From an uncultured Eggerthellaceae bacterium (GTDB taxonomy: Bacteria > Actinomycetota > Coriobacteriia > Coriobacteriales > Eggerthellaceae): 64,000 bases of DNA. Position numbers and translations under genes: made by a program. Location of the stretch: NCBI GenBank assembly GCA_949840905.1, contig CATKXW010000001.1, forward strand, positions 75,499-139,498, read 5' to 3'. The notes beneath the pieces were generated by a model. The model saw only the letters and a program-made list of their open reading frames with translations, did no database searches and had not been told where the DNA came from. This document shows, in pieces, positions 43,052 through 61,920 of the stretch (the stretch's first letter is position 1; every line of letters begins with the position of its first letter).

Positions 43052-45059
<2,008 letters not shown>

Positions 45060-45966: not shown

Positions 45967-46100
45967 GGGCCGATCCCCCCTCTGCTCGGGCTCTCTGCCG
46001 CGCTCGCCCGCGCAACGAGGGCCTCGTGAATCCATTGCGACCATGATAGCGCAACTACCGGCCGCTCACCTTCCGGCGAGGGCTGCGGCGGCAGGCTCGA

Positions 46101-47039: not shown

Positions 47040-49102
47040 GCGACCTTGCGCAGGTACTTGGGCAGGTCGAACTCAAGACCGGTGCCCGACATGTTCTGAC
47101 CGAGCCACGAGTAACAGCTCGACATGGTCTCGGCGATGCCGGTAGCCCAGGTGAGCGAGGTGGCGTACTGATGCCAAGGGTCGCCGCCCTGCTCCATGCG
47201 CTGCACGTCCCAACGCATCTTATAAAGGGTGTTCTGCTGACCCGACTCAGGCGAGGTCGAGTTCACGTAATTGTTCGATATCCATTCCGCTGCGCCCACG
47301 ATAGCGCGCTCGGGGCTGCTCCAGCCGCCCTTCTTCGCCATGGCAGCACCGCCGTTGTTCGGGTCGACGTCGTAGGCACCGATGCCGTAGAAGTTGTAGT
47401 AGCCCTCATAGCCGGCCACCTTGCCCTGAGCGAGGGTCGAACAGCCCCACGCGCTCTCGATGGCGGCATGGGCGAGCAAATACACCTCGTTCACATTGTG
47501 CTTCTTGGCTGCGTCGATGAAGTACTGACCGGTCTCGCGCAGGTTGCTGCGCACGCCGTAGCGCTTCTCCTGATAGGTCACCTTCGAGGCGATCAGCTGG
47601 TTGAGCTGATCAGCCGTCACGTTGCCCGAGAACCCGTCGGAGAGGATGGCGTACTGGTAGTACTTCTGGCCCCAATAGGAGCACTTGTCAGGATCGAGGG
47701 TCTGCATCACGTCCTCAGCTTTGCTGCCAGAACGTGCCGCTTGGGTCTCAGCGAAGCGCTCCAGCCACACATCATAGGCGGTGACGCGGATGTTCGAGAA
47801 ATGGAGCGCGTCGAACAGCGCGCCCTGCACGCTGTTGCTGAGCGCTTTGGTATCGCCGAAGATGCGCATGGTCTTGATGCCGCCAGCACGGTTGACCACG
47901 TCAACAGCGCGCTCGGTGTTGTTCTCGTTCACCAGCATCATCACCGACTTGCTGCGTCCCTGAAGGGCGCCGCCGCCGAGAGCGTCCCACGGAGCCAGGC
48001 CGGTAGCGAAGCCGGCGCCCTCCATGGACAGGCCGTTCTTGGTGGCCCACACGGCCGTCTTGGCGCTGGTATCATAGCGATCGGTGCCGTCCATGCGCTC
48101 GACATTGCTCGCGCAGTCGCGCAGCATCTGCTCGGTGCCCGAGCTCACGCGCACGCCGCTGCCCACCACCAGGCCCTGGTCGAAGGAGCCAGCAGCACGC
48201 AGAGCGCCGGTCTGCTCGTCGTTCAGTACCAGGTCGTCGTTGGTGAGGAACAAAGGTGCCTTCTTCACGTAGGCCACCGGCGCGGCGGAAAGAGCGTCAG
48301 GGAACGCCACATCCTGGCCGCTGGCCACCACCACCAGGTCGTTGCCCCACAGACCGTTCTTCTTGCCGTAGTCGTAGATGGCCATCTGCGTCGCATAGCG
48401 ATCCACGCCGCCCAAACGGCCCTCCAGCGCGATGCCCATGGCGCGCAGGTCGTCCACCACCTGGTCGCTCAAGGCGGCCGTAGAGCCGATGACCAGAGCC
48501 TTCTTCACCCGCAGCGTGGTGATGGCGCTCTTGGCACAGTCGCTCAACCGCCACGGCTCGGTGAGGAGGATGGGGCAGTCGTAGGCGCCAGCCAAGCTCG
48601 ACGCGGTCAGTGCGTCGGGGAAGCGCTCGCCGGTGACCAGGATGATGTAGTCGCTGCTCTGCCATCCGGTGGTGGCCTGACGAGCGGAGGTGTCGTAGCG
48701 GTCGCAGCCGTCGAGGGTCACCACGCTCTGCGAGCGCGTGGTGCTCGAGAACAACGAGATACGATCATCGGCACCGGAACCGTCATCGTCGGTCTTCATG
48801 TTCTCGGCGATCTCCTCATCGGTGATGTTGGAGTACAGAGGAGCCTCTTCGCTCTCCTCCACCGGAGCCATCGGCTCATCGGAAGCTTCCTCGGCCGCTT
48901 CTGGCACATCGGGTTCTTTGAGCGATGCGGCCAGCGGAGCCTCTGCGGGGGCTTCTTCATTCTTCTGCATCAGATCGTCGACGAGAAGGCTCGTCCACGG
49001 AAGACCGTTGTTCGCCAACGCCGACAACGGCATCGACAAGACGAGGGCGGCCGACAGCGCCACGCCCACGATAGCAGCAAGCTTCACCTTGCGGTTCTTC
49101 AT
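47036..49102 (-). CDS. Secreted cell-wall hydrolase: three CWB2 (CW_binding_2) repeats plus a GH73 N-acetylglucosaminidase domain
   Basis: 688 aa from the ATG at 49102 (signal peptide MKNRKVKLAAIVGVALSAALVLSMPLSALA). Repeats GCDRYDTS..FPDALTASSLAGAYDCPILLT, GVDRYATQ..FPDALSAAPVAYVKKAPLFLT, GTDRYDTS... C-terminal LLAHAAIESAWG...YNFYGIGAYD is a glucosaminidase core. Confidence 0.85.
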   Translation of the reverse strand: MKNRKVKLAAIVGVALSAALVLSMPLSALANNGLPWTSLLVDDLMQKNEEAPAEAPLAASLKEPDVPEAAEEASDEPMAPVEESEEAPLYSNITDEEIAENMKTDDDGSGADDRISLFSSTTRSQSVVTLDGCDRYDTSARQATTGWQSSDYIILVTGERFPDALTASSLAGAYDCPILLTEPWRLSDCAKSAITTLRVKKALVIGSTAALSDQVVDDLRAMGIALEGRLGGVDRYATQMAIYDYGKKNGLWGNDLVVVASGQDVAFPDALSAAPVAYVKKAPLFLTNDDLVLNDEQTGALRAAGSFDQGLVVGSGVRVSSGTEQMLRDCASNVERMDGTDRYDTSAKTAVWATKNGLSMEGAGFATGLAPWDALGGGALQGRSKSVMMLVNENNTERAVDVVNRAGGIKTMRIFGDTKALSNSVQGALFDALHFSNIRVTAYDVWLERFAETQAARSGSKAEDVMQTLDPDKCSYWGQKYYQYAILSDGFSGNVTADQLNQLIASKVTYQEKRYGVRSNLRETGQYFIDAAKKHNVNEVYLLAHAAIESAWGCSTLAQGKVAGYEGYYNFYGIGAYDVDPNNGGAAMAKKGGWSSPERAIVGAAEWISNNYVNSTSPESGQQNTLYKMRWDVQRMEQGGDPWHQYATSLTWATGIAETMSSCYSWLGQNMSGTGLEFDLPKYLRKVA

Positions 49103-49258
49103 GACCAACACCCTTCTTCTCCGCCGCTCCCGTTCAGGTCCCCTTCCCTGGGGGGGCATTCGGAGGCGGCCTCTCTGCTACGTTTGGTGTTTATAATGAG
49201 TGATGTTAGATTATATGACCGTTCATTTCCCTTGAAAAGACGGAAGAAGAGCGAAAGC

Positions 49259-50926: not shown

Positions 50927-51673
50927 TCACACCTTCTTCCTGAACCACTGCACCAACAGGATGGAAACGCACACCTGCAGCATATAGCTCATCGAGCGGG
51001 TGAACGTGAGGTAGCTCTCCCCTGCGATGCGCTCCTGCATCTCCACCTGCACCTCTTCCACCTTCGCGCCGCTGCGCATGGCCAACACGAGGGAATCGGG
51101 CTCAGGACCTAGGTCCAGCTCAGTAGCGAACGGCTCGATCATCTTGCGGTCGAACAGGCGCATGCCGGAGGTGGGATCGGTGATGGTCTTGCCCGTGGTG
51201 AGCTTGATGAGCCCCGTGATGAGGCTGGAGCCGATCATGCGGGCCGAAACGGGCTTCTTCTTCTCGCAGAACCGCGAGCCGATGACGATGTCAGCGCCGG
51301 TGCGTTCGGCCTGCTCCACCATAGGGAGTATGTAGGCGGCGCCGTGCTGACCGTCGGCATCGAACTGCACCGCGTAGTCGTAGCCGTGGCGCAGGGCGTA
51401 CTTCATGCCGGTCTGGAACGCCCCAGCAAGGCCGAGGTTCACAGGAAGCGAGACCAGGTTGTAGCCGTGCTCCTCGCACAGGCGCGCGGTGGCGTCCCGC
51501 GAGCCGTCGTTCACGATCACATGGTCGACCCCTGGTGCACGGGCCAGCAGGTCCTCCACCGTGGAGACGATGTTCTCTTCTTCGTTGTAGGCCGGGATGA
51601 TGGCCAGGATCCTTCGGTCCATGGTGCTCGTCTTCTCGTTTCGGTCGGTCGATGCCGCTATCGGGTCAGCCAT
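50927..51673 (-). CDS. GT2 glycosyltransferase (polyprenyl-phosphate glycosyltransferase-like, GtrB/CsbB type)
   Basis: 248 aa. ILAIIPAYNEEENI, DGSRD, FDADGQH motifs. Paired with DUF2304. Confidence 0.8.
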   Translation of the reverse strand: MADPIAASTDRNEKTSTMDRRILAIIPAYNEEENIVSTVEDLLARAPGVDHVIVNDGSRDATARLCEEHGYNLVSLPVNLGLAGAFQTGMKYALRHGYDYAVQFDADGQHGAAYILPMVEQAERTGADIVIGSRFCEKKKPVSARMIGSSLITGLIKLTTGKTITDPTSGMRLFDRKMIEPFATELDLGPEPDSLVLAMRSGAKVEEVQVEMQERIAGESYLTFTRSMSYMLQVCVSILLVQWFRKKV

Positions 51674-52457
51674 TGCTCTTGCGCCCCAGTCCGTGAGCGA
51701 GGTTGAGCGCCCAGGCGATGGGCGCGGGCCAGAAGCGCCGCAGCATCTCGCGGTCCTCGGCGGTGCGCGTGTTGTCCTTTATGAGGGCCGAGGTCTCCGA
51801 TCCCTCGTGGATCCTATGGTACATGAGGATGCGCGGGTCGTAGAGGAACTCGCCGCTCAGATGGGATATGCGCTCCCATGCCTCCCAATCGAGGTTGCTC
51901 TTCATGCCGTCTTGGAACACTGGGTACGGCAGCGCGTCCACCGCCATCGTCACCGACGGACAGCAGATGGCCGAGCCCAAGGAGAGCACACGACGGCGCA
52001 CGCGCACATCGGCGCGATTCGCCTTGTCCTCCAAAGGACGCAACAGCTTGCGCTTCACGGCCAGCAGACGGTTGTCGTCCACCGGCTCCCCATCGCGCAG
52101 CTCGCCGTAGTTGGTGAAGAACAGCAGCGGTCGTTCCGCGTCGTTCATGGCCTCCAACATGGCCTCGGCATAGGGGGCGCAGTACACGTCATCTTGGTGC
52201 GCGATGGTCACCAGCGGCGTATCGGCGCAGGACAGCGCATAGTTCCAATCGTGAGCGATGCCTGGGGCCTCGCCGCTCACGAACAGCTCGATGTCGGCCT
52301 GTCGTGCTGCGTCCTCTATCCACCCGTTCGGCGTGGAGGTGCACAAGATGATGTGGGAAGCGACGCTCTGGTCCTTCAACGAGGCGATGCACTCGCGCAG
52401 ATAGGGGCCTTCCCCGTAGGCGCAAAGGGCGAATGTGTGGTCTTGGGCAGTGAACAT
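51666..52457 (-). CDS. GT2-family glycosyltransferase
   Basis: 263 aa from the ATG at 52457. FALCAYGEGPYLRECIASL...IAHQDDVY. The track ORF to 52901 is a spurious extension. Confidence 0.7.
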   Translation of the reverse strand: MFTAQDHTFALCAYGEGPYLRECIASLKDQSVASHIILCTSTPNGWIEDAARQADIELFVSGEAPGIAHDWNYALSCADTPLVTIAHQDDVYCAPYAEAMLEAMNDAERPLLFFTNYGELRDGEPVDDNRLLAVKRKLLRPLEDKANRADVRVRRRVLSLGSAICCPSVTMAVDALPYPVFQDGMKSNLDWEAWERISHLSGEFLYDPRILMYHRIHEGSETSALIKDNTRTAEDREMLRRFWPAPIAWALNLAHGLGRKSNG

Positions 52458-52575: not shown

Positions 52576-54714
52576 ATGTGGGCCGGCTTCATCGTCGGAT
52601 GCCTCGTCGGCATCTTGATCCTGTTCATCCCCGGTGCGCTCGTGCTGCGCGCGCTGCGCTTCTCGCTGCCCCAAAGCTGCGCGTTCGCCCCTGCGCTCTC
52701 GGTGGCCATCATCGCCATAGCAGGCGTGGCCATCGACCTGCTCTCGCTGAAAGGGGTCGGGGCGCTGCTCGGCATGACGGCGCTCATCACGGTGGCGCTG
52801 AGCGCGAAGGGGCTGCTCTCCTCCCTGACCGCCTGGCGCGCCCACGCCGCGGAGAAGCCGAGCGCAGCTCCCCTGCTGCCGTCCATCTCCTGGGGGGCCA
52901 TCGCGCTCTACGTGGTGGTGAACGTGGGTGTCATGGGGTATCTGTTCCTCATCTGCCTGAGCTCCCTCGATGCCATCATCCCCATCGGGGACGTCAACTA
53001 CCATGTGAACGTCGTGATGTCCATGATGGACAGCGGCAACTTCTCCACCCTCTCCGTCTCCCCCTACCCTGACTCGCTTCCCGCCGAAGAGGTGCCCTTT
53101 GCCGCGAACGGCTACTATCCGGCCGCCTGGCATGCGGTATGCGCCCTGCTCGGCTCGCTCTGCGGCCTGAGCGCCCCTCTGGCGGAGAACGTCTTGAACT
53201 TCCTGTTCACCTCCGTGGTGTTCCCCCTCGGCGTGCTGGGGCTTTTGACGGTGGCCTTTCCTGAGCGCAAGACGTTCGTCTGGTGGGGGGCGCTCGTGGT
53301 GTGCGCCGGGGTCGCCTTCCCGCTGCGGCCCTTGCTGGTCCATCAGATATATCCGAACATCGCTGGGTTCTCCTGCCTGCCGGCGGTCATCGCCTTGAGC
53401 GCGGCGGCCTTGGGCCCCCTCGACGGGAAAGGGATGCGCTCGCGGCTCCTCGCCGCCTCCTTCGGCGGCTTCGTCGGGTTGGGCCTGCTGCATCCCAACG
53501 TGTTCTTGGCAGGATGCGTCTTCCTGTTCGCCATCGTGCTCTGCATCGGCATCCCGCAGCTCTCAGCTTGCCTCGCCCGTCGCGCCCGCCAACAGCGATG
53601 GCGTTCGCCGAGGCGGTGGCGCATCGCGCTCTCGGTGGCCTGGATCGTGCTGGCCGTGACGGTCTGGCTCGTGCTGTTGGACCTGCCGGCCTTCGCCAGC
53701 ATCACCAACTTCCTGTGGACGTGGACCGTCTCGGTGCCGAAGGCCATCATGTTGGTGCTCTCCTTCGGCCTGTGCCTCGGGCCGCCCCAATACCTTCTCG
53801 CGTTGCTCGGCGTCATCGGCGCCATCTGGTGCTCGCGCCATGAGGGCCATGGATGGCTCGTGCTCGCAGCCGTGCTGTTCGCCATCGTCTTCTGCGGCGG
53901 GGCCGCTGGGTCCCCTGAGGTGAAGAAGGTGTTCGCCGGCTTCTGGTACACCGACCCCGAGCGCACTTCAGCTCTGTTCACCATCGCCATGATCCCGCTC
54001 GTGGCCGCCGGTCTCGGGCTGGCCTACCAAGGGGTGCGAAAGGGCATCGACGTCCTGATCGAAAGAGGCGAGAAGGCCTCCTCCCAGCAGGGCCGCACCG
54101 CGACCGCGGCCAGATCGGCCAAGATCGGGGCCATCGCCGTGGTGACCGCGGTCTTCGTCAGCCTCGACTTCTTCGCAGCTCACATCCCTCTGCCCCTCCC
54201 CGGGTTCGGCGACGGCTCCGGTTTCGCCATCACACGCCAAGCCCTCCGCTATGAGAGCGATCCTGCCAACTCGCCGCTCTACACCGAAGCGGAGCAACGC
54301 TTCGTGGACGAGGCGCTCGCCCTGGTGAGCCAGGAGGGGCACGACGATGCGCTCATCATCAACCAGCCCCACGACGGCAGCCTGTTCGCTTACCCCGTCA
54401 ACGACGCCAACGTGTACTACAAGTCCTACATCCGCTCCGACCAAGAGAGCGAAGAGAGCAAGGCCATCCGCCTCTCCCTCGACGAGATATCCACCGACGA
54501 AGCCGTTCGCGCAGCCGTGCGCAAAGCCGAGGAGAGCGCCGGGGCCGTCTATGTGCTGGTGCTGAACCACGACGAGGGCGAGAACTACGACAGCAACCGC
54601 TGGAAAGAGGAGGACTGGACCGGCTTCGACGACCTCACCGACGCCACCCCCGGCTTCGAGACGGTGCTGGCCGACGGCACCATGCGCCTCTACCGCATCA
54701 CCGCCCTCGACTGA
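52576..54714 (+). CDS. Large polytopic membrane protein with a C-terminal extracytoplasmic domain (GT-C-like / polymer-modifying candidate)
   Basis: 712 aa, at least 12 predicted TMs. An early loop motif DVNYHVN...YYPAAWH, and a soluble acidic C-terminal ~170 aa. SD AAGGTGA before the ATG. Confidence 0.5.
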   Translation: MWAGFIVGCLVGILILFIPGALVLRALRFSLPQSCAFAPALSVAIIAIAGVAIDLLSLKGVGALLGMTALITVALSAKGLLSSLTAWRAHAAEKPSAAPLLPSISWGAIALYVVVNVGVMGYLFLICLSSLDAIIPIGDVNYHVNVVMSMMDSGNFSTLSVSPYPDSLPAEEVPFAANGYYPAAWHAVCALLGSLCGLSAPLAENVLNFLFTSVVFPLGVLGLLTVAFPERKTFVWWGALVVCAGVAFPLRPLLVHQIYPNIAGFSCLPAVIALSAAALGPLDGKGMRSRLLAASFGGFVGLGLLHPNVFLAGCVFLFAIVLCIGIPQLSACLARRARQQRWRSPRRWRIALSVAWIVLAVTVWLVLLDLPAFASITNFLWTWTVSVPKAIMLVLSFGLCLGPPQYLLALLGVIGAIWCSRHEGHGWLVLAAVLFAIVFCGGAAGSPEVKKVFAGFWYTDPERTSALFTIAMIPLVAAGLGLAYQGVRKGIDVLIERGEKASSQQGRTATAARSAKIGAIAVVTAVFVSLDFFAAHIPLPLPGFGDGSGFAITRQALRYESDPANSPLYTEAEQRFVDEALALVSQEGHDDALIINQPHDGSLFAYPVNDANVYYKSYIRSDQESEESKAIRLSLDEISTDEAVRAAVRKAEESAGAVYVLVLNHDEGENYDSNRWKEEDWTGFDDLTDATPGFETVLADGTMRLYRITALD

Positions 54715-54744
54715 CGCCTCCCCTCCCTTCATCGCACCATCGAA

Positions 54745-54788
54745 AAGCCCCCTTCTTCCGTTCGAGCGCGGACGGAAGAAGGGGGCTT
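54745..54788. terminator. Strong bidirectional terminator hairpin between convergent genes
   Basis: Perfect 17-bp stem AAGCCCCCTTCTTCCGT / ACGGAAGAAGGGGGCTT with a 10-nt loop. The minus-strand reading is followed by TTTTCG. Confidence 0.8.
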
Positions 54789-54831
54789 CGACGTTCGGTC
54801 TGCGAGCGCAGCTAGCGCCAGATCAGCCAGG

Positions 54832-57800
54832 TCAGCGACCCATCACCTTGTGAGCCAGGCCCTTCACGGTCTCTCGCCGCTTGCTGCCCACGGGCATCAG
54901 CGGGTTCACTATCTTGCGCACCGCGCGCCCCACCGGCAGCGCTGGCGGCTTGGGAGCCGGCGCGACATCAGGCCGCTCGTTGGCGAGCAGCATGGCCAGC
55001 ATCACCTCGTAGAACGGCGTGTTGCGCGCATAGCGCCAGTACACCTCGTTGCGATCGCAGTACCAATCCTTCCACGGCTTCTGGAACCCGGCGTAATGGA
55101 TGATCCACGGATCGGCATAGGATGCGCAGAACCCGTCGTAGACCGCCGCCGGCGCGTGGACGAACACGTTCGCGATACGGTTGCCGCAGTCGTTCATCAC
55201 GTTCCATCGCGGGTCGAGGTAGCGCACGCGCCCCTCGCAACAGGCGTTGAGCACGTCTTGGTCGTTATAGATGTAGTCGGGATCCGCCGCGAAGGTGAGC
55301 CACTCGTCCACCCCATGGGCGTTGCGCATCGCCTCGGTGTTCAGCACCAGCACCCCAGCTTGGAAGTAGTCGTAGGGGTCCTTCATGTGCAGCGTCTCAG
55401 CGTTGTAGGCCAGACGCTTGCCGTCCTTCAAGTTGAGGTTGCCGAGGAAGTCGATGTCGCGCACGGCTCCCACCAGGGCATCCCCCAGGTCGGTATCATA
55501 GAGCGCAGCCACGTCCCCCTCCACGATGAGGTCCGAATCCAGGTAGAGCACCTTATGGTATTCCGGCAGGATATCCTGGATCAGGAAGCGGAAGTACGTC
55601 TCGATGCCGATATGCTCGTTGTTGGTCGACAGGTCGTACTCGGCCACCAGGCTGCCGGCGCCTACGAATCGCAGGCGCGCGTTGGCGCGATCGAGGAACC
55701 GCTTCATCACCTGCTGATCGTAGCCGCTGATGCCGTTCTCCAACACCACGATGTCATAGAAGCGCTCAGGCGAGGCGTTCTCCAGCATGGAGGAGATGGT
55801 GGTGGTCAGCATGGGCACGTAGCCGCCGTCAGCAGCGAACACCACGGGCACCACCGGCAACGGCTGTTCGAGCTGCATGCTGGGCAGCGCCGGGCCGTGG
55901 GTCTTGTCCGGATGCTCGAAGTGCACGCACTGCACCTGCTTGGTCTTCCACTGCGCGCCGGTGCGCATCTGATGGTTATAGTAGATGTTGAACAAGCGCT
56001 CGGAGAGGTGACCAGGGGTGCGCAGCGCCTCTTTGCTATAGGTGCTCATGTCCGTCACTTCGCAGAACCGCTCCAAGATGGGGAACATCCACTCGCAGTA
56101 GGCGAAGAAGATGTCCTTCTTCATCACGTACATGTTGCAGAAGCAGGTGAAGTTGCCGTTAGCGAAGGCTTCGACGTCCTCGACGTAGTCGGGATGCATG
56201 TCCTCCACGATGGCGAGCACCGTCGGCAGGTCGTCCTCTTTCAGAAGGGGCGCTTCGACGTACTGCTCAAGGGGCGTGTTCGCGCGGAACGGGAACTTCC
56301 GCAGGTCCTTCATCTCGGTGGTGATGACGTCGTAGCCCTCCACGGCGCGGGCGATGGTAGCGTCGTCAAGACCGTACTTCTTCTGGGTGGCGGCATCTAT
56401 CACGCCGTCCATGATCTCGCCGTAGTCGTTCTCCTCATAGCGCACATCGCTGAAGTTGAAGTAGCGGCGGTAGTGGCAGAAGCCGTAGTAGTCGGCATCC
56501 ACGTTCTTCCACGCCCAGTACTGGGCCGTCAGCTCGCAGTACTGCGGGTTCAGCTCGCTGATGTTCTCGCCCGCGTCATCGGAGAGCATGTGGTCGAAGC
56601 GCGCAGCGGCGTTAGCCGCTCCCACCTGCACCGGTTGCAAGATGTCGCTCTCGAACAGGTCGACGTCCTTATGGGCCGCCACGAACAGGCGGATGCGCTG
56701 GTCGTCCCAACGCTTGCGGACGGCCTGCTGCACGGTGCGCGCACGCACGTTCTCACGATCGTTGCGCGCCTGCTGCGCCATGGCATAGGTGCGCGGCGAG
56801 AGCACCTTGGAGCGAGCGAGGCTGCGGGCGAGGTCGAACCACTGGTCGAAGGGCTCCTCTCCCTCATAGGCGGCACCCTGAGCCCACAGGGCGTAGGCAT
56901 CGTCGCGCACGAAGCGCACCAGCTCGTAGATGGTCTCGTCCTCGCCGATGATGGGGACCAGCCCCTGGGCCGCCTCCAGCTTGTCCTCGTCAGCCACACG
57001 CTCGTGCCAATCGTTGCAAAGGAGCTGCAGCAGCTTCTCCTTAGCGCCGCGCACCGCGCCGTCCAAGGAAGGATCGTGGCAGCTGGCGGCATATTCCTCG
57101 ATGGCGTCGATGGCCATCTGGAACGCGCGAGCGCTCTTCAGAAACGACTCCACGCTCAGAGCCGCCGAGCCGTTCAGGCCGCGACCGTAGTAATAGTCGA
57201 GAGCGACCACGTCATTGGCGGTGAGCTGCTCGCTCGCCAGGCTGGCGATGACGAAGAACTCGTAGGCGTCCTGGGCACGGCCGAGGCGCTCGGCGTTCAT
57301 GGCCTCATAGGCGCGCTTGAGGAAATCGGTGCGATAGACGCGCTGAGTGACGCGCCAGTCTTGCTCGTAGCCGCCTTCCGCATCGAAGATGACCTTCATG
57401 ATGCGCCGGCCGCGCAGAGGCGCCATGGGGCGGTTGATGTAGGCCTCGAAGGCCGCTCGCTCCCCTTCGTTCACCCCAGCGTCCACCACCCGTATGCCGT
57501 AGTGGAGCATCTCGCAGGGCCGCTGGGCCAAGCGCTCGTCCAGCGCTCCCAACGCCCCTGCGGGCACCTCGTCATCGGAGTCGAGGAACAGCGCGTATTC
57601 CCCGCTCGCACGGGCCACTCCGCTCTTGCGGGCCCGATGGGTGCCCTCGTTGTGCGGCTTGTCCACCACAACGAAACGCCCATCGCGAGCGGCATGGTCT
57701 TGGGCGATGACGGCGCACCGATCGGGCGAGCCGTCGATGACCACCACGGCCTCCCAATCGGTGAAGGACTGAGCGAGCAGGCTGTCCAAGCAGGCCGGGA

Positions 57801-57849
57801 GGTATCGCTCGTTGTCATAGGCGGGGATGATGACGGAGAACCGCTTCAT
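54832..57849 (-). CDS. Three-domain glycosyltransferase: GT2 + DUF4422-like + GT8
   Basis: 1005 aa. GT2 at aa 1-220 (FSVIIPAYDNERYL, DGSPD, DSDDE). Helical linker. DUF4422-like block at aa ~385-645 (LFVAAHKD...NPQYCELTAQYWAWKN...YGFCHYRRYF). GT8 at aa ~665-930 (VVFAADGGYV...YFRFLI...LYLDSDLIV). Basic C-terminal tail. Confidence 0.8.
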   Translation of the reverse strand: MKRFSVIIPAYDNERYLPACLDSLLAQSFTDWEAVVVIDGSPDRCAVIAQDHAARDGRFVVVDKPHNEGTHRARKSGVARASGEYALFLDSDDEVPAGALGALDERLAQRPCEMLHYGIRVVDAGVNEGERAAFEAYINRPMAPLRGRRIMKVIFDAEGGYEQDWRVTQRVYRTDFLKRAYEAMNAERLGRAQDAYEFFVIASLASEQLTANDVVALDYYYGRGLNGSAALSVESFLKSARAFQMAIDAIEEYAASCHDPSLDGAVRGAKEKLLQLLCNDWHERVADEDKLEAAQGLVPIIGEDETIYELVRFVRDDAYALWAQGAAYEGEEPFDQWFDLARSLARSKVLSPRTYAMAQQARNDRENVRARTVQQAVRKRWDDQRIRLFVAAHKDVDLFESDILQPVQVGAANAAARFDHMLSDDAGENISELNPQYCELTAQYWAWKNVDADYYGFCHYRRYFNFSDVRYEENDYGEIMDGVIDAATQKKYGLDDATIARAVEGYDVITTEMKDLRKFPFRANTPLEQYVEAPLLKEDDLPTVLAIVEDMHPDYVEDVEAFANGNFTCFCNMYVMKKDIFFAYCEWMFPILERFCEVTDMSTYSKEALRTPGHLSERLFNIYYNHQMRTGAQWKTKQVQCVHFEHPDKTHGPALPSMQLEQPLPVVPVVFAADGGYVPMLTTTISSMLENASPERFYDIVVLENGISGYDQQVMKRFLDRANARLRFVGAGSLVAEYDLSTNNEHIGIETYFRFLIQDILPEYHKVLYLDSDLIVEGDVAALYDTDLGDALVGAVRDIDFLGNLNLKDGKRLAYNAETLHMKDPYDYFQAGVLVLNTEAMRNAHGVDEWLTFAADPDYIYNDQDVLNACCEGRVRYLDPRWNVMNDCGNRIANVFVHAPAAVYDGFCASYADPWIIHYAGFQKPWKDWYCDRNEVYWRYARNTPFYEVMLAMLLANERPDVAPAPKPPALPVGRAVRKIVNPLMPVGSKRRETVKGLAHKVMGR

Positions 57850-57874
57850 GGGCGCTCACTTTCTCGTTTTCGAC

Positions 57875-57891
57875 ATGCTATATAATAGCAT
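57875..57891. promoter_or_regulatory. Perfect 17-bp palindrome containing back-to-back extended -10 elements (candidate operator/divergent promoter)
   Basis: ATGCTAT-ATA-ATAGCAT. The plus strand reads TGCTATATAAT and the minus strand reads TGCTATTATAT. It sits between the 1005-aa GT gene (-) and wzm (+). Confidence 0.55.
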
Positions 57892-57952
57892 CGCTCGACC
57901 GTCCGCTCGGTCAAGCGCGCCGCAGAACCGACGGTAAGGAGCGAGCCCGAAC

Positions 57953-58741
57953 GTGTCCGCACAGAGCGTACAGAACCAGACCGGCCTGAGGCGCGACTGG
58001 TTCACCATCACCTCTCTGGTCTCCAAGGATTTCAAGCTCAAATACCGTCGAAGCGTGCTGGGCGTGCTGTGGTCGGTGCTGAACCCGCTGCTCATGATGT
58101 GCGTGCTCACGGCCGTGTTCAGCACGTTCTTCCGCTTCGAGCTGGAGCACTATCCGTTCTACCTCATCTTGGGAACCACGCTGTTCTCGCTGATGTCGGA
58201 CTCCACCAACACCGCCATGACCTCCATCATCGACTCGGCGCCTCTCATCAAGAAGATACGCATCGACAAGATCATCTTCCCGCTCGAAAAGGTGCTGTTC
58301 CAGATGGTGAACTTCGCCATCTCGCTCATCGCCGTGGTCATCGTCATGGTGTTCCTGCAGATACCGCCCACCTTCAACCTGGCGTTCCTACCGCTGCTGC
58401 TCGTCTACGTGGCACTGTTCAGCGCAGGGCTCGGGCTCATCCTGTCCACCCTCGCGGTGTTCTTCCGCGACGTGGTGCACATCTGGAGCGTGGTCACCAC
58501 CGCATGGATGTACGCCACCCCGCTGTTCTACCCGGTCAGCATCTTGCCCGACTGGATGCTCGGGTTCGAGGCGTTCAACCCGATGTATCACTATGTCACC
58601 TACTTCCGCGACATCGCGCTGTGGGGGAACACCCCCGGCGCCATCGAGAACCTCGTGTGCTTCGCCATGGCCGCGGTCACGTTCCTGGTGGGCTTCTTCG
58701 TGTTCCGCAGGGCGCAGAAGAAGTTCATCCTCTACGTGTGA
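57953..58741 (+). CDS. ABC-2 type polysaccharide/teichoic-acid export permease (Wzm/TagG-like)
   Basis: 262 aa. KDFKLKYRRSVLGVLWSVLNP N-terminal signature, six TMs. GTG start with AAGGAG 11 nt upstream. Confidence 0.88.
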   Translation: MSAQSVQNQTGLRRDWFTITSLVSKDFKLKYRRSVLGVLWSVLNPLLMMCVLTAVFSTFFRFELEHYPFYLILGTTLFSLMSDSTNTAMTSIIDSAPLIKKIRIDKIIFPLEKVLFQMVNFAISLIAVVIVMVFLQIPPTFNLAFLPLLLVYVALFSAGLGLILSTLAVFFRDVVHIWSVVTTAWMYATPLFYPVSILPDWMLGFEAFNPMYHYVTYFRDIALWGNTPGAIENLVCFAMAAVTFLVGFFVFRRAQKKFILYV

Positions 58742-58759
58742 GCGAGAAAGGGACGCGCG

Positions 58760-60607
58760 ATGCCCAAAGAGGTCAACACATCTTCGCTGATGACGAGCGC
58801 CGCGGCTCCGGCCGCCGACGAGGGACGGACGGTGATAGCCGTCGAGGATGTCTCCATGGTGTTCAACATAGCCAACCAGCAGCTGAACAACTTGAAGGAA
58901 TACGCCATCGCGCTCGCGCGCCGCGAGCTTATGTTCAAGGAGTTCGTCGCCCTCGACCATGTCTCCCTCACCGTGAAGAAGGGGGATGTGTTCGGCATCC
59001 TGGGCACTAACGGCTCGGGCAAGTCCACCCTGCTGAAGATCATCGCCGGAGTGCTGGAGCCCACCTGCGGCACCGTCGAGATAGACGGGTCCATCGCCCC
59101 TCTGATAGAGCTGGGAGCTGGGTTCGACTTCGAGCTCACCGCTCGCGAGAACATCTACCTCAACGGCGCTCTGCTGGGCTATCCGCGGCGCTTCATCGAC
59201 GAGCATTTCGACGAGATAGTCGACTTCGCCGAGATAGGCGAGTTCCTCGACATGCCCATCAAGAACTATTCTTCGGGCATGGTGGCGCGCATCGCCTTCG
59301 CCATCGCCACGGTGATCGTGCCCGACATCCTCATCGTGGACGAGGTGCTGTCGGTGGGCGATTTCATGTTCCAGCAGAAGTGCGAGCAGAAGATACAGAG
59401 CCTCATCAACGAGCATGGGGTGACCGTGCTCATCGTCTCTCACAACAACGACCAGATAGAACGCCTCTGCAACAAGGCCATCTGGATAGAGAAGGGCCAT
59501 GGCCGCATCGTGGGCAGCGCAGAGGAGGTCTGCGGCATCTACCGCGCGCTCGGCGGCCACACCGGCAGCGCTCAGGCCGAAGCACAGCTCTTAGAGCTGA
59601 TCGAGAGTCCCGTGGCTCCCGCCGAAGACGCCCTCGAGGTGATCGCGGGCGATACCCGCTACAGCACCAACGTGCAGCTGGCGCGGCGCACGAGCTTGGC
59701 CGCCGGCGGCACGGCCACCATCGCGTTCGGAGAAGACCCCGACGCCCACCTGCTGGCCGTGGCCTTGGCCGGAGCGCTGCAAGGCGCGGCGCTCATCACG
59801 AAGGCCGATGAGCTGCCCGACGCCACAGCGCTGGTGCTGGCTCAGATGGCACCGTCCCGGGTCGTGCTGATGGATCGCGACGGCCAGCTCGCAGCGGATA
59901 TGGTCGATGCGGTGCGCGCAGTGGTCGGCCCCGCCTGCGAGGTCACCCGCCTCGCAGCGGACGGGACGGTCGCGCTCGCCCGCGGAGCGCTCGCCTATGC
60001 GGATGCCCACCACGCCACGTTCAGCCCGGTGGCCTTCGTGGTGGGCGGGAACGGCGCGTTCGCCTCCGCCACCATCGCCCCCTACCTCGCCCGCCATGGC
60101 TCTCAGCTGCTGTTCGCCACCGAGGGCGAGCCGCTGGATGGCACCGTCATGGAAGAGATGCGGAAGCGCGGGGCGCAAGAGGTCGTCTTGTTGGGCTCTG
60201 TGCCCGTGACCGAGAAGGGCCGTCACGCGGCCCAGCAGGCCGGGCTGACCCTCACCGCCCTCGCAGGCGACAGCGACGCAGAAGCCCATCGAACCGCCTT
60301 GCGGTGGCTCACGGAACGCCATCGAGCCACCGGCGAGCTGGTGAGCCGCCTGGTGCTGACCACCCTGGCCGGTCCGACCGACAGCTATTCGGCCGCTGCG
60401 CTAGCCGCCCAAGACCACGCCGTCATCATGATGGCCGACCACAACGACCTCGACAGCATGGCGGCGGTCGTCTCGTTCATCGAGGAGGAGCGCGGGGCGG
60501 TGGATTCCGTGGCCGTCATCGGCAACGACGCATGCTTCAACGGCACCGATCGCAAGCTCGTCCGAAAAGCCCTCGCCCGCGCGAAGGCCGCAGCGCAGAA
60601 GGGCTAA
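58760..60607 (+). CDS. Polysaccharide/teichoic-acid export ATP-binding protein (Wzt/TagH-like) with a ~335-aa C-terminal CWB2-like extension
   Basis: 615 aa. NBD with GTNGSGKST, YSSGM, ILIVDE. The C-terminal part has three CWB2-like segments, the first starting AGDTRYSTNVQLA. Confidence 0.85.
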   Translation: MPKEVNTSSLMTSAAAPAADEGRTVIAVEDVSMVFNIANQQLNNLKEYAIALARRELMFKEFVALDHVSLTVKKGDVFGILGTNGSGKSTLLKIIAGVLEPTCGTVEIDGSIAPLIELGAGFDFELTARENIYLNGALLGYPRRFIDEHFDEIVDFAEIGEFLDMPIKNYSSGMVARIAFAIATVIVPDILIVDEVLSVGDFMFQQKCEQKIQSLINEHGVTVLIVSHNNDQIERLCNKAIWIEKGHGRIVGSAEEVCGIYRALGGHTGSAQAEAQLLELIESPVAPAEDALEVIAGDTRYSTNVQLARRTSLAAGGTATIAFGEDPDAHLLAVALAGALQGAALITKADELPDATALVLAQMAPSRVVLMDRDGQLAADMVDAVRAVVGPACEVTRLAADGTVALARGALAYADAHHATFSPVAFVVGGNGAFASATIAPYLARHGSQLLFATEGEPLDGTVMEEMRKRGAQEVVLLGSVPVTEKGRHAAQQAGLTLTALAGDSDAEAHRTALRWLTERHRATGELVSRLVLTTLAGPTDSYSAAALAAQDHAVIMMADHNDLDSMAAVVSFIEEERGAVDSVAVIGNDACFNGTDRKLVRKALARAKAAAQKG

Positions 60608-61920
60608 TCGCGTCCGAACAGATCGCGCGTGTACACCTTAGCGCGCACGTCATCGAGCTCCGGATGATAGCGGTTCGCCAAGATGAGCGTGCTGCGACGC
60701 TTCAGCTCATCCAGATCGGCCACCACCTCTACCCCGTCGAACTCCGCACCGGCGAAGGCCGGTTCGTAGATGACCATGTCCACGCCCTTGTTCCGTAGCC
60801 GTTCCATCACGCCGATGATGGAGGATTGGCGGAAGTTGTCAGAGCCAGCCTTCATGGTGAGCCGATAGATGCCCACCACCGGGTGCACGCCGGTGCCGAA
60901 CCCGCCCCATTCTCGCAGAAGACCGTACACTTGCTCGGCGATGAGGTCTTTGCGCGTGTCGTTGGTGCGCACGATGGCGCCGATGAGCTCCTGGGGCACA
61001 TCCGCGTAGTTCGCCAACAGCTGCTTGCTGTCCTTGGGGAGGCAGTAGCCGCCGTAGCCGAACGAGGGGTTGTTGTAGTGGCCGCCGATGCGCGGATCGA
61101 GACACACGCCCTCGATGATCTGGGCCGTGTTCAGGCCGCGCAAGGCCGCATAGGTGTCCAGTTCGTTGAAGTAGCTCACGCGCAGGGCCAGATAGGTGTT
61201 GGCGAACAGCTTGATGGCCTCGGCCTCGGTGCTGCCGCAGACCAGCTGGGGCACAGCATCCATGGGCTCGGCTGCGCCTTCGGCCAGGAGCCGCGCGAAG
61301 AACGCGCCGAACTCGCAGTTGCGCCTATCGACAAGATCGACGCCCACCACGATGCGAGAGGGATGCAGGTTGTCGAACAGCGCATGGCCCTCGCGCAGGA
61401 ACTCAGGGCTGAACACGATGCGCCCATCGTTCGCCCGCTGACGCAGTTCGGCGGTATAGCCTACGGGAACGGTGGATTTGATGACGATCCAGCAGCGCTG
61501 GTTCACAGCGCGCACCGTGGCGATGGCCGTCTCCACCGTAGAGGTATCGAAGCGGTCGAGGTCGCTGTCATAGTCGGTAGGGGTGGCGATGACCACGATG
61601 TCGGCGCAACCATAGGCCGCTGCCGGATCGAAGGTAGCCCGTAGAGCCAGCGGATGCTCGCCGGTGGCCGCCGCCATGAAGGCCGCCGTTATCTCGGGAT
61701 CGGCGATGGGGCTGATCCAGTCGTTCACCATGGCGACCTTCTCGGGCACCACGTCCACCAAGGCGACATCGCTATGCTGGGCCAGCAGCGTCGCCATCGA
61801 CAGCCCCACATAGCCCGCGCCCGCCACCGCGATGCGCGCTCGGCCATCGGGGCGCACGAACGGCTCTTCTTCGACCGCTTGCTGTTGTTGTTGCTGCTGC
61901 TTCTTCCGCCCGAACACCAT
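60604..61920 (-). CDS. ugd: UDP-glucose 6-dehydrogenase family (nucleotide-sugar dehydrogenase)
   Basis: 438 aa. GAGYVGLS Rossmann motif and catalytic GYGGYCLPKD. The ATG at 61920 has SD GGAAGGGA. The N-terminal 30 aa includes seven consecutive Gln. Confidence 0.88.
   Translation of the reverse strand: MVFGRKKQQQQQQQAVEEEPFVRPDGRARIAVAGAGYVGLSMATLLAQHSDVALVDVVPEKVAMVNDWISPIADPEITAAFMAAATGEHPLALRATFDPAAAYGCADIVVIATPTDYDSDLDRFDTSTVETAIATVRAVNQRCWIVIKSTVPVGYTAELRQRANDGRIVFSPEFLREGHALFDNLHPSRIVVGVDLVDRRNCEFGAFFARLLAEGAAEPMDAVPQLVCGSTEAEAIKLFANTYLALRVSYFNELDTYAALRGLNTAQIIEGVCLDPRIGGHYNNPSFGYGGYCLPKDSKQLLANYADVPQELIGAIVRTNDTRKDLIAEQVYGLLREWGGFGTGVHPVVGIYRLTMKAGSDNFRQSSIIGVMERLRNKGVDMVIYEPAFAGAEFDGVEVVADLDELKRRSTLILANRYHPELDDVRAKVYTRDLFGRD

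Follow-up and report, generated by a model that had tools for sequence, protein, structure and literature searches.

A GT2 glycosyltransferase fused to a predicted WbbM-type galactan polymerase in Coriobacteriia and bifidobacteria

Introduction

WbbM, the D-galactan I polymerase of Klebsiella pneumoniae O2a, combines a GT111 Galf-transferase with a GT8 Galp-transferase and makes the O2a galactan in an ABC-transporter pathway (PMC12269835, PMC11294581, PMC11231755); GT111, its UDP-Galf transferase domain, is DUF4422 in Pfam (PMC12269835). The primer on which WbbM works, Galf-Galp-GlcNAc-PP-Und, is made by WecA, WbbO and WbbN (PMC11294581), and the adaptor enzymes – WbbN among them – interact with WbbM (PMC11231755).

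Other systems offer partial parallels. WbdA, which makes the mannan of E. coli O9 and Klebsiella O3 and O5 with one module per linkage, holds several transferase modules in one polypeptide and builds the whole chain in the cytoplasm (PMC11231755). WbbB (Klebsiella O12) and ORF6 of Klebsiella O7 are large multi-module proteins of the ABC-transporter pathway in which an N-terminal activity is followed by a helical region and two C-terminal polymerising modules; WbbB and WbdD have extended coiled coils (PMC11231755). TarS and TarP of Staphylococcus aureus and RmlT of Listeria monocytogenes are GT2 enzymes, laid out as catalytic, helical and oligomerisation domains, that decorate preformed wall teichoic acid in the cytoplasm (PMC11697029).

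Coriobacteriia (Collinsella, Eggerthellaceae, Olsenella, Atopobium/Lancefieldella) and bifidobacteria are abundant in human and animal microbiota, and their wall-polysaccharide biosynthesis is almost unstudied. Here we analyse a gene from an uncultured Eggerthellaceae bacterium, lying in a stretch of 64,000 nucleotides (the window), whose product carries a collinear homologue of WbbM behind a third, self-contained glycosyltransferase.

Results

The fusion gene

54832..57849, minus strand: three-module glycosyltransferase gene, 1005 aa (ATG at 57849, TGA at 54832-54834; ORF list and translation)
54741..54790, minus strand: G+C-rich hairpin followed by TTTT, a likely intrinsic terminator (read from sequence, about 40 nt past the stop codon)

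The reading frame of 1005 codons is uninterrupted, and from its sequence surroundings the gene looks monocistronic. An earlier reading made from the letters alone (the sequence-only reading) had proposed that three glycosyltransferase modules are joined here in one polypeptide, and mapping of the domain boundaries with HMMs finds them in the order GT2 (Glycos_transf_2, PF00535, aa 5-156, E 6.7e-31), DUF4422 (PF14393, aa 387-627, E 1.4e-69, profile positions 1-219 of 220) and GT8 (Glyco_transf_8, PF01501, aa 669-929, E 1.3e-37), with scores far above the cut-offs. A 1011-aa ORF on the plus strand (54850-57885) was rejected as a high-GC shadow frame.

The same three Pfam domains, at 100% length coverage and 50-71% identity, are found in more than 120 protein clusters, and residues 1-1005 of the fusion are encoded in at least 80 species genomes (44-55% identity). 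Among 151 sampled genomes of the class – the window's own not counted – 14 carry the fusion without internal stops: 13 match over the whole length, and one (G070) encodes a variant of 1118 aa with a diverged N-terminal module. Recurrence of the same full-length architecture in 80 or more species genomes excludes both a frameshift and an assembly chimera, either of which would have undone the earlier proposal. The GT2–DUF4422–GT8 fusion is genuine, and Coriobacteriia and bifidobacteria carry it widely. It comprises two units, aa 1-384 and aa 385-946 plus the tail, each of which is also found as a separate gene. The geometry between modules is uncertain in the full-length AlphaFold2 prediction, which is of the monomer (pTM 0.58).

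The GT111–GT8 unit

55900..56697, minus strand: GT111 (DUF4422) module, predicted UDP-Galf-dependent galactofuranosyltransferase, aa 385-650 (Pfam PF14393, identity to WbbM)
55855..55899, minus strand: Pro-rich flexible linker between GT111 and GT8, aa 651-665 (pLDDT below 50 at 652-661)
55012..55854, minus strand: retaining GT8 module, predicted alpha-galactopyranosyltransferase, aa 666-946 (Pfam PF01501, matches to WbbM and LgtC)

The second unit has the two domains of WbbM in the same order. [quoted passage not shown] The GT8 module also matches LgtC, both in sequence (1g9r, E 1.6e-22) and in fold (TMt, the TM-score normalised to the target, 0.80). Aa 651-665 form the only low-confidence linker inside the protein.

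Among its invariant columns the GT111 module displays H393, C-E-L-T-x-Q-Y-W-A-W-K-N (438-449), H-Y-R-R (459-462), N572, R610 and G-H-L-x-E-R (613-618). In the GT8 module the motifs D771-S-D773 (DxD), D863-Q864-D865 and H918-x-x-G921-x-x-K924-P-W926 are invariant in 57 homologues and common to WbbM and LgtC. Overall, WbbM has the same residue at 84 of the 137 family-invariant positions, among them those of HYRR, GHxxER and the GT8 DxD, DQD and HxxGxxKPW motifs.

Since aa 385-946 aligns end to end with 6U4B, the C-terminal two thirds of the protein is predicted, from sequence, to be a polymerase of WbbM type that makes a repeat of the disaccharide Galf/Galp; an identity of 34% does not fix sugar or linkage specificity, which is what we infer from homology. 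The earlier view is supported that the protein polymerises glycan in the cytoplasm with several glycosyltransferase modules, as part of an ABC-transporter-dependent pathway. The accompanying remark that the activity of DUF4422 is poorly defined is outdated, the family being GT111, the galactofuranosyltransferase half of Klebsiella WbbM (PMC12269835). Nor does the locus supply much of the functional hint expected of it, given that DUF4422 and GT8 together are already a collinear homologue of the whole of WbbM.

The N-terminal GT2 enzyme

57160..57849, minus strand: GT2 catalytic subdomain of GT-A fold, aa 1-230 (Pfam PF00535, invariant columns, Foldseek)
56698..57159, minus strand: six-helix subdomain of the GT2 enzyme, aa 231-384 (AlphaFold2, free-standing paralogues, Foldseek)

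The catalytic acids of the GT2 module – D39, the DxD motif D90-x-D92-D93, and D194 – are all invariant, and its GT-A core matches 3bcv with a TMt of 0.80. D194 stands at the start of helix 193-204; in RmlT, D198, for which a D198A variant has been crystallised, stands at the start of helix h11 (196-206) (PMC11697029). By this apparent equivalence D194 is a candidate catalytic base. Aa 1-384 is an inverting GT2 of GT-A fold, with nucleotide-binding Asp, DxD and predicted base Asp present.

The sequence-only reading had described aa 230-380 as a helical linker of about 150 aa that might act as a spacer or ruler. The region is helical: AlphaFold2 and DSSP give helices at 233-257, 260-284, 287-301, 303-323, 333-345 and 352-382, each of 13-31 residues. 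It is not a linker. The helices form a compact bundle that, when aa 1-384 is predicted by itself (pLDDT 94.8, pTM 0.91), makes one rigid body with the GT-A core; the bundle has invariant residues of its own (W281, R284, R312, R315, D316, Y319); and the same bundle is carried by free-standing enzymes. Two such paralogues, of 415 and 421 aa, span residues 1-376 and stop there, and many further representatives have lengths of 377-445 aa. The last helix (352-383), hydrophilic and basic, shows neither amphipathic nor heptad character (hydrophobic moment 0.10) and leads directly into the first strand of GT111. A role as spacer, ruler or linker is not supported, and aa 1-384 is an autonomous enzyme.

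The best Foldseek matches to aa 1-384 are TarS, TarP and RmlT, although the match is moderate (TMq, the TM-score normalised to the query, 0.48-0.55; rmsd 5-10 Å) and sequence identity is 13-20%. The apparent resemblance lies in the architecture, a GT-A subdomain tightly joined to a helical subdomain with a further domain next, and in the chemistry: inverting GT2, DxD, and an Asp that begins what looks like the equivalent helix. The oligomerisation or turret domains of these enzymes are absent from the fusion, which has a whole WbbM-type polymerase in their place; the free paralogues end after the helical subdomain. Poly-ribitol-phosphate is an unlikely acceptor for the fusion's GT2; a galactan or a lipid-linked primer is expected.

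In a phylogenetic tree, 12 free paralogues and the fused modules of two bifidobacterial relatives form one clade (support 100/100), within which the 12 free paralogues form their own subclade (100/99). In the loci where position was examined (L025, L040), members of this subclade lie directly upstream of the fused gene. Free paralogues have basic C-termini, and related loci hold from one to three copies of the GT2 module. All-pairs identity is 47% for the GT-A core and 31% for the helical subdomain, as against 63% for GT111 and 62% for GT8. Among the adaptors compared, the N-terminal GT2 has no specific similarity to a characterised one, and it gave no match to the GlfT1 model.

The C-terminal tail

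54835..55011, minus strand: C-terminal tail, aa 947-1005 (AlphaFold2, invariant columns, charge and hydrophobic moment)

The protein had been said to end in a basic tail, and so it does, after a Pro-rich part: one short helix is followed by a Pro-rich disordered stretch (956-974) and two basic helices, 975-984 and 990-1002, with net charges of +3 and +4. The first of these has a hydrophobic moment of 0.96. A motif within the tail, P986...R991-R992-E993, is invariant in the family. From these features we infer that the tail probably makes a peripheral contact with the membrane or with a partner.

Locus and genome context

57850..57952, no strand: promoter region of 103 bp between the fused gene and the divergent wzm (sequence)
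57953..60607, plus strand: wzm (57953-58741) and wzt (58760-60607), ABC-2 exporter for a lipid-linked polymer (Pfam, translation)
52576..54714, plus strand: DUF6541, polytopic membrane protein of 712 aa, convergent with the fused gene (Pfam, 1.3e-134)

As noted earlier, the fused gene adjoins wzm/wzt, from which it is divergently transcribed across the 103-bp spacer. Adjacency to wzm/wzt is seen in 22 of 80 related loci, and is not seen in the Atopobium and Lancefieldella relatives. The window's Wzt has a CWB2-like C-terminal extension of about 350 aa. This extension is absent from all 14 sampled fusion-bearing genomes, and of 23 related loci with a Wzt match only two also matched the extension; coupling of the conserved fusion to it therefore seems unlikely. 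DUF6541, a possible extracytoplasmic partner, is a recurrent neighbour, adjacent to the fused gene in L003, L010 and L012 and, by tblastn, in 12 of 80 loci.

Two glf genes occur in the genome, both outside the window. All 14 other fusion-bearing genomes examined also have glf, and relatives in Collinsella, Berryella and Galliscardovia have it within the cluster; because 66 of the 68 sampled genomes listed for the order carry it, making it almost universal there, its presence does not discriminate. The genome holds a second MraY/WecA-family gene beyond that of the window, and four LCP genes. The locus of the fusion includes rmlABCD and ugd, rmlC being absent from three of 15 fusion-bearing genomes. 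Two further genes in the window (46101-47039 and 51666-52457) are predicted only as GT2, and the locus genes that were scanned include no WbbO-like GT4. In Bifidobacterium primatium the locus reads wzm, wzt, fusion, rmlA-B-CD, and Pfam detects no glycosyltransferase other than the fusion between wzm/wzt and the rml genes.

Discussion

We consider it fairly likely that the fusion is a galactan synthase, in which a WbbM-type backbone polymerase is joined to a GT2 that adds a further sugar. The analysis shows the domain identities, the collinearity with WbbM, the conserved catalytic motifs, the autonomy of the GT2 unit, the genomic supply of UDP-Galf and the adjacent exporter; the sugars and linkages, the role of the GT2 unit, trimerisation, membrane contact through the basic tail and attachment to the wall are predictions. 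WbbM is the closest relative in several respects: the Wzm/Wzt pathway, glf-derived UDP-Galf and the catalytic motifs are common to both. The fusion differs in its additional 384-residue GT2 enzyme at the N-terminus, in a Pro-rich and basic tail with its own conserved motif, in the lack of a WbbO-like GT4 among the scanned genes of its locus, and in its host, a Gram-positive actinobacterium; the product would therefore be a wall polysaccharide and not an O antigen.

The protein would act as a peripheral glycan synthase with three active sites on the cytoplasmic face of the membrane. The GT111 module would transfer beta-Galf from UDP-Galf and the retaining GT8 module alpha-Galp from UDP-Gal, the two alternating on an undecaprenyl-diphosphate-linked primer; the resulting galactan would repeat a Galf-Galp disaccharide along its backbone, most probably as ->3)-beta-D-Galf-(1->3)-alpha-D-Galp-(1-> or in a closely similar form. 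The GT2 enzyme, joined to the polymerase at the place where TarS, TarP and RmlT carry their oligomerisation domain, would most likely attach one more sugar to the growing galactan, either as a branch or as the third residue within the chain, from a donor that may differ between lineages. Once complete, the lipid-linked chain would leave through Wzm/Wzt, DUF6541 and the locus's polyprenyl-phosphate-sugar synthase might modify it outside the membrane, and an LCP enzyme would attach it to peptidoglycan. Sequence divergence is much faster in the GT2 module than in the polymerase modules, and some loci have a duplicated GT2, as would fit a branching or third-sugar role, for which divergence rate, copy number and fold analogy argue indirectly. 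Together the three modules could make a repeat with three linkages. The modules of WbdA are GT4 mannosyltransferases and those of the fusion belong to GT2, GT111 and GT8, for which one linkage per module in every repeat is a possibility only.

The main rival, which we regard as possible without thinking it likely, assigns the N-terminal GT2 to priming: an adaptor transferase, acting once per chain, would place a committed sugar on the Und-PP-linked primer, and the fusion would hard-wire an interaction of the WbbN–WbbM type. The Klebsiella O2a adaptors prepare the primer of WbbM and interact with WbbM; the fusion is the only Pfam-detected glycosyltransferase between wzm/wzt and the rml genes in B. 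primatium; the invariant arginines R284, R312 and R315 of the helical subdomain could bind a diphosphate; and the basic C-termini of the free paralogues resemble those of peripheral membrane enzymes. WbbN is a separate protein that shares at least the GT2 family with the N-terminal module. Against priming, an adaptor between a conserved primer and a conserved polymerase is expected to be at least as conserved as the polymerase, yet identity is 31-47% as against 62-63%, and loci hold as many as three paralogous copies. The GlfT1 model and the characterised adaptors compared offer no specific resemblance, and either of the window's other two GT2 genes could prime instead.

A second alternative, which we judge improbable, is a polymerase-terminator like WbbB, whose GT2 would cap the non-reducing end while the helical region sets chain length as a ruler and the extended C-terminal domain of Wzt reads the cap. 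The order of parts – N-terminal transferase, helical region, two C-terminal polymerising modules – does mirror WbbB and ORF6 of Klebsiella O7, and the window's Wzt has its extension of about 350 aa; in known systems such extensions accompany capped chains. The coiled-coil ruler of WbbB, WbdD and ORF6 of O7 is nevertheless missing: instead of an extended coiled coil there are helices of at most 31 residues, in a compact bundle that is rigid on the GT-A core, belongs to the GT2 enzyme and is carried by free-standing enzymes, with a last helix that lacks heptad character. At the N-terminus stands an ordinary GT2 and neither a Kdo transferase nor a methyltransferase-kinase, and in relatives the fusion seems not to be coupled to a Wzt binding domain, given the record of 14 genomes without the extension and two loci of 23 with it.

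The least probable reading is that the modules have drifted in specificity from WbbM (GT8 to Glc or GalNAc, GT111 to another Galf linkage) and make another heteropolysaccharide, for instance one containing rhamnose or glucuronate: identity to WbbM is just 34%, 53 of the 137 family-invariant positions differ from it, GT8 enzymes use several UDP-hexoses, and rmlABCD and ugd share the locus. It is disfavoured in that Galf transfer is the only characterised GT111 activity (PMC12269835), that glf accompanies the fusion in the window's genome and in 14 of 14 others (in-cluster in several relatives), that the active-site motifs are common to WbbM and LgtC, both galactosyltransferases, and that rmlC is missing from three of 15 fusion-bearing genomes.

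Returning to the galactan synthase, two of its three parts, GT111 and GT8, are already well understood; what is new is a third self-contained enzyme at the front end of a WbbM homologue. Gram-positive Actinomycetota commonly have the WbbM design, which is known from one Gram-negative O antigen, and in them it is extended by this module. WbbM itself was reportedly described by Clarke and colleagues in 2020 as a homotrimer whose central stalk orients the active sites toward the membrane. More tentatively, we suggest that the fusion is a self-sufficient modular synthase whose backbone polymerase, presumably trimeric, scaffolds a fast-evolving, exchangeable TarS-like GT2 that sets a strain-specific branch or third sugar. 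In gut Coriobacteriia and many bifidobacteria its product, a branched polymer containing Galf, might be both the surface antigen and the chief polysaccharide of the wall, with DUF6541 completing it outside the membrane; in this genome it might serve also as the ligand of CWB2 domains (in the neighbouring wall hydrolase and Wzt).

The fusion family offers a direct handle on a Galf-containing wall polymer, with a predicted galactan-I-like backbone and three named active sites for mutation, and its N-terminal GT2 is a likely source of structural and antigenic variation from strain to strain. To our knowledge Galf is absent from mammals, and Galf polymers are therefore candidate immune and phage-receptor determinants. 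For annotation, a "DUF4422 domain-containing protein" of about 1000 aa can be read as a predicted GT2–GT111–GT8 galactan synthase.

Architecture and conservation of the fused gene

The synthase gene is a single frame of 1005 codons that runs without interruption on the reverse strand (open reading frame list and translation). Pfam places three domains along the product, each far above its curated cut-off: Glycos_transf_2 (residues 5-156, E = 6.7e-31), DUF4422 (residues 387-627, E = 1.4e-69) and Glyco_transf_8 (residues 669-929, E = 1.3e-37). The sequence-only reading of a single polypeptide with GT2, DUF4422-like and GT8 modules is thus borne out by the domain mapping that it had proposed as a check. 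The opposite strand has an equally long frame (54850-57885, +), a shadow frame of the kind common in high-GC DNA (GC content ~63%).

Features of the synthase locus (window coordinates)
41931-42443, -, gtrA
42469-43050, -, rmlC
43052-44101, -, rmlB
44106-45059, -, rmlD
45070-46044, -, rmlA
46101-47039, -, GT2
47036-49159, -, wall hydrolase with three CWB2 repeats and a glucosaminidase domain
50927-51673, -, GT2 of 248 aa with a sub-threshold NCBIfam PpgS match
51666-52457, -, further GT2
52576-54714, +, DUF6541 membrane protein
54832-57849, -, three-module synthase
57953-60607, +, wzm and wzt
60604-61920, -, ugd

The gene had been described as lying next to wzm/wzt, and so it does: wzm is divergent and begins 103 bp from the synthase ATG. 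The synthase and DUF6541 genes converge, and in the gap between them, some 40 nt past the synthase stop codon, a strong G+C-rich hairpin with a TTTT run after it (54741-54790) resembles a terminator for the synthase gene. Given the divergent wzm on one side and this hairpin on the other, the synthase gene appears to be transcribed on its own.

A frameshift or assembly fusion of separate genes, the doubt attached to the first description, is ruled out by conservation of the architecture over its full length. Among 5.8 billion proteins searched, more than 120 homologous clusters (50-71% identity, 100% query coverage, ~1000 aa) have the three domains alike, with named clusters from Olsenella, Slackia and Coriobacteriaceae. 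When one genome per species was scanned, at least 80 loci were found, nearly all matched across residues 1-1005 at 44-55% identity. Carriers in the Coriobacteriia include Olsenella, Collinsella, Eggerthellaceae, Slackia, Berryella, Senegalimassilia, Atopobium/Lancefieldella, Thermophilibacter and Tractidigestivibacter; those in the Bifidobacteriaceae include B. boum, B. thermacidophilum, B. subtile, B. ruminantium, B. miconis, B. primatium, a B. angulatum MAG and Galliscardovia. The GT2-GT111-GT8 variant (GT111 being the family of the DUF4422 module) is therefore widespread in gut and oral Actinomycetota. Full-length homologues are publicly annotated as "DUF4422 domain-containing protein", and no description of the fusion was found in the literature searched.

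Within the class the distribution is patchy. The fused gene is present without stops in 14 of 151 evenly drawn genomes (the window's own not counted); in 13 the match spans the whole length, and the remaining one (G070) encodes a 1118-aa variant with a diverged N-terminal module. All other sampled genomes of the window's own family, within this 151-genome sample, lack it. In a tree of N-terminal modules the window's copy groups with those of Olsenella sp. An290 and O. profusa (support 100/98), which, together with the patchy distribution, suggests that the locus may have been exchanged between families. Contigs labelled Oscillospiraceae, Alistipes, Bacillota, Acidaminococcaceae and Oribacterium (L018, L026, L032, L044 and L058) also carry the fused gene, at 46-52% identity. 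L032 and a Collinsella isolate (L054) have identical N-modules. These contigs most likely reflect errors of MAG binning rather than transfer across phyla.

The C-terminal two thirds resemble WbbM

Residues 385-946 align as one stretch with residues 28-588 of Klebsiella pneumoniae WbbM (PDB 6U4B; E = 9.5e-91 in a search of all PDB sequences); 34% of the 550 aligned positions are identical (35% for GT111 and 34% for GT8). WbbM has the same residue at 84 of the 137 positions of this region that do not vary across 57 family members; among the 84 are H393, HYRR (459-462), N572, R610 and GH..ER (613-618) in GT111, and D674, D771-x-D773, D863-Q-D865 and H918..G921..K924-P-W926 in GT8. The whole protein, modelled with AlphaFold2 (mean pLDDT 88.5), has 6U4B as its best structural match (E = 6.9e-47), followed by LgtC for the GT8 part; the sole truly disordered linker is at the GT111/GT8 junction (residues 652-661, pLDDT <50). 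On alignment and model alike, the C-terminal two thirds are predicted to be a WbbM-type polymerase. WbbM itself, which Clarke et al. reportedly found in 2020 to be a trimer, is collinear with this part of the protein; the window's protein adds an N-terminal GT2.

The activities of WbbM are published. Its N-terminal DUF4422 domain is a UDP-Galf transferase and founder of family GT111 (PMC12269835), so that the earlier statement that DUF4422 activity is poorly defined is out of date, and its C-terminal domain is a GT8 UDP-Galp transferase (PMC12269835, PMC11294581, PMC11231755). The acceptor is Galf-Galp-GlcNAc-PP-Und, the product of WecA, WbbO and WbbN (PMC11294581). Two of the three modules are thus explained by a solved and characterised homologue, and the synthase is an architectural variant of the WbbM-type polymerases of ABC-transporter-dependent glycan pathways. 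Of the proposal of a single-protein polymerase, the polymerase homology of GT111 plus GT8 stands; a helical spacer or ruler and a poorly defined DUF4422 do not.

Some Olsenella and Thermophilibacter loci carry, near the fused gene, a second, unfused WbbM-like gene (GT111 + GT8, ~620-657 aa; L014 7228-9063, L015 14440-16293 and G108:C3:12486-14336). It is 58-60% identical to the window's polymerase part, as close as the fused copy is; these loci are accordingly predicted to have two polymerases.

The helical region is part of the N-terminal enzyme

The stretch between the first two modules had been taken for a long helical linker acting as spacer or ruler. DSSP on the model shows a GT-A core to about residue 225 and then six helices (233-257, 260-284, 287-301, 303-323, 333-345 and 352-383) separated by short turns only. 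Modelled alone, residues 1-384 score a pLDDT of 94.8 and a pTM of 0.91, and so are predicted to form one rigid globular body. The final helix is hydrophilic and basic (hydrophobic moment 0.10), and the first GT111 beta-strand begins three residues on. Invariant residues of the helical subdomain are W281, R284, R312, R315, D316 and Y319.

The same region is found in proteins that have no polymerase attached. In the related metagenomic locus L003, two free-standing paralogues (421 and 415 aa) are encoded immediately upstream of that locus's fused gene; they share 39-43% identity with the module of the window, their alignment spans residues 1-376, and they end soon after the last helix. An exhaustive HMMER search with the N-module (1.84 billion representatives, E <= 1e-30) matched 456 clusters: many are free forms of 377-445 aa with most of the module length matched, and others are multi-GT2 proteins of ~1000-1700 aa with two to five matched stretches each. 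A coiled-coil ruler is ruled out by the model of residues 1-384, the free paralogues and the hydrophobic moment: the region is a compact bundle, in contrast to the rulers of WbdD and WbbB, which are extended coiled coils (PMC11231755). A flexible spacer does not fit these observations either. Model and paralogues indicate that the N-terminal third is a complete, autonomous GT2 enzyme, to which the supposed linker belongs.

In a maximum-likelihood tree, twelve free paralogues from Coriobacteriia and bifidobacteria (among others L025, L040, L039, L042, L046, L052 and L053) form a 100/99 subclade nested in a 100/100 clade that is completed by two fused modules, from B. primatium and Galliscardovia. 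This sister relationship hints that N-modules may have been swapped. Where examined (L025, L040) the free paralogue is directly upstream of the fused gene; no such paralogue is present in the window's own genome.

By sequence the N-module is an ordinary GT2, with relatives past about residue 100 only in its own family. Its NCBIfam matches (PRK10073, TuaG and EpsD, the first two best) are sub-threshold and confined to the first ~95 residues. The best folds across all 384 residues are Staphylococcus aureus TarS and TarP and Listeria monocytogenes RmlT (TM-score normalised to the query 0.48-0.55); smaller structures comprising GT-A only fit the core well (3bcv, TM-score normalised to the target 0.80). 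TarS and TarP are trimers and RmlT a dimer, and they decorate preformed polymer in the cytoplasm (PMC11697029). Where these enzymes have an oligomerisation region, the window's protein has its WbbM-type polymerase. Given a fold match of moderate strength and no oligomerisation domain, we read the modelled resemblance as one of architecture and do not place the module in the TarS family.

Candidate roles of the N-terminal module

The main question raised by the fused synthase is the role of its N-terminal GT2: an intact, autonomous and fast-evolving module for which branching, priming and capping are candidate roles. All three groups of catalytic acids (D39; D90, D92 and D93; D194) are invariant, and the module is therefore predicted to be active. 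It diverges much faster than the polymerase modules: all-pairs identity is 47% for the GT-A core and 31% for the helical subdomain, vs. 63% for GT111 and 62% for GT8. Loci contain from one to three copies. A variable, duplicated module on a conserved backbone polymerase is what would be expected of a part that lends diversity to a surface glycan, and our favoured reading, held tentatively, is that the N-module adds a branch or a third residue.

The main rival, which we consider rather unlikely, is that the module primes the polymer. The Klebsiella GT2 adaptor WbbN works with and binds WbbM (PMC11294581, PMC11231755). Moreover, the Bifidobacterium primatium locus (L056 5662-14785) consists of wzt, wzm and then the divergent fused synthase, rmlA, rmlB and a fused rmlC-rmlD, and the synthase is the sole glycosyltransferase that Pfam finds between wzm/wzt and the rml genes; a 723-aa protein with no Pfam matches and a rhamnosidase-like gene flank this cluster. 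Capping of the chain, coupled to a ruler, is highly improbable, since the helical bundle is compact and the window-type extension of Wzt is rarely present among carriers.

Several donors were considered. The presence of rmlABCD in the locus, the RmlT fold match and the B. primatium locus prompted the idea of a general rhamnosyltransferase; it is weakened by the absence of rmlC from 3 of 15 fusion-bearing genomes, each 99% complete, and dTDP-rhamnose cannot therefore be the general donor. It could still hold for the window's lineage, where rmlABCD, 9-15 kb from the synthase gene and on the same strand, make it attractive. UDP-glucuronate is a lead only: ugd is near the synthase gene in the window, as it is in the two closest relatives, and PRK10073 (the model for E. 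coli YibD/WaaH) and TuaG are the best NCBIfam matches. A GlfT1/GlfT2-like Galf-transferase finds no support, there being no match to the NCBIfam GlfT1 model and no GlfT2 among the top 50 fold matches. Nearby sugar-nucleotide genes, mapped onto the N-module tree, gave no clean pattern.

Neighbouring genes and export

The product of 50927-51673 has as its best NCBIfam match PpgS, in NCBIfam a polyprenyl-phospho-N-acetylgalactosaminyl synthase (E = 4.4e-29; 101.5 bits vs. a cut-off of 370). Taken with gtrA and DUF6541, it suggests that the polymer is modified outside the membrane. DUF6541 is a polytopic membrane protein of ~700 aa that has no solved relative, and a PDB sequence search gave no match for it or for the GT2s at 46101-47039 and 51666-52457. 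In three families it is a repeated neighbour of the fused synthase, including at loci whose wzm/wzt lie elsewhere: besides the window's copy there are copies in L003 (9398-11455), L010 (11959-14181) and L012 (3415-5517), and it adjoins the fused gene in L003, in a Collinsella locus and in an Olsenella-type locus, one of these with wzm/wzt far off. DUF6541 is thus a plausible candidate for an extracytoplasmic partner of the synthase.

The Wzt ATPase (58760-60607, +) is extended at its C-terminus by ~350 aa, in which no membrane helix is obvious; Pfam matches CWB2 weakly there, and the stretch also contains a CWB2-like start motif. None of the 14 sampled synthase-carrying genomes has this extension on its Wzt, and of the 23 related loci in which Wzt was matched, only 2 showed a match to it; it is thus probably a lineage-specific addition, outside the conserved machinery.

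Galactofuranose and the predicted product

Under the proposed scheme a galactan would be assembled lipid-linked in the cytoplasm, exported by the ABC transporter and then modified from polyprenyl-phosphate sugars by polytopic membrane proteins; cytoplasmic galactan, export and modification of this kind would recall actinobacterial arabinogalactan assembly. The genome has two genes of the MraY/WecA family: one inside the window, which may belong to a cell-division cluster, and one elsewhere, a candidate for the initiating enzyme. Four LCP-family genes are present. The wall polysaccharide of B. infantis ATCC 15697, described by Tone-Shimokawa in 1996, is said to equal Klebsiella galactan I in structure.

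Two glf genes (UDP-galactopyranose mutase) are on contigs other than the window's; in Collinsella, Berryella and Galliscardovia relatives glf is within the cluster. The window's genome and all 14 further fusion carriers examined have glf. This co-occurrence is uninformative on whether Galf is used, because in the window's order 66 of the 68 genomes that were sampled and listed have the gene. None of the listed genomes of the class's other orders does, and Galf-containing glycans thus look like a core trait of the order. As entered in a review table, the B. infantis ATCC 15697 polysaccharide contains galactofuranose in a disaccharide repeat (Tone-Shimokawa 1996).

Elsewhere in the window's genome, another cluster (G000:C6:68399-75117) contains three GT2 genes and a second DUF4422 gene, this one with a single domain and 31% identical to the GT111 module; one of the two glf genes is part of an open frame of 582 aa, after which comes a GT2 (G000:C2:6968-8079). 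From these two gene groups, the genome probably makes more than one Galf-containing glycan.
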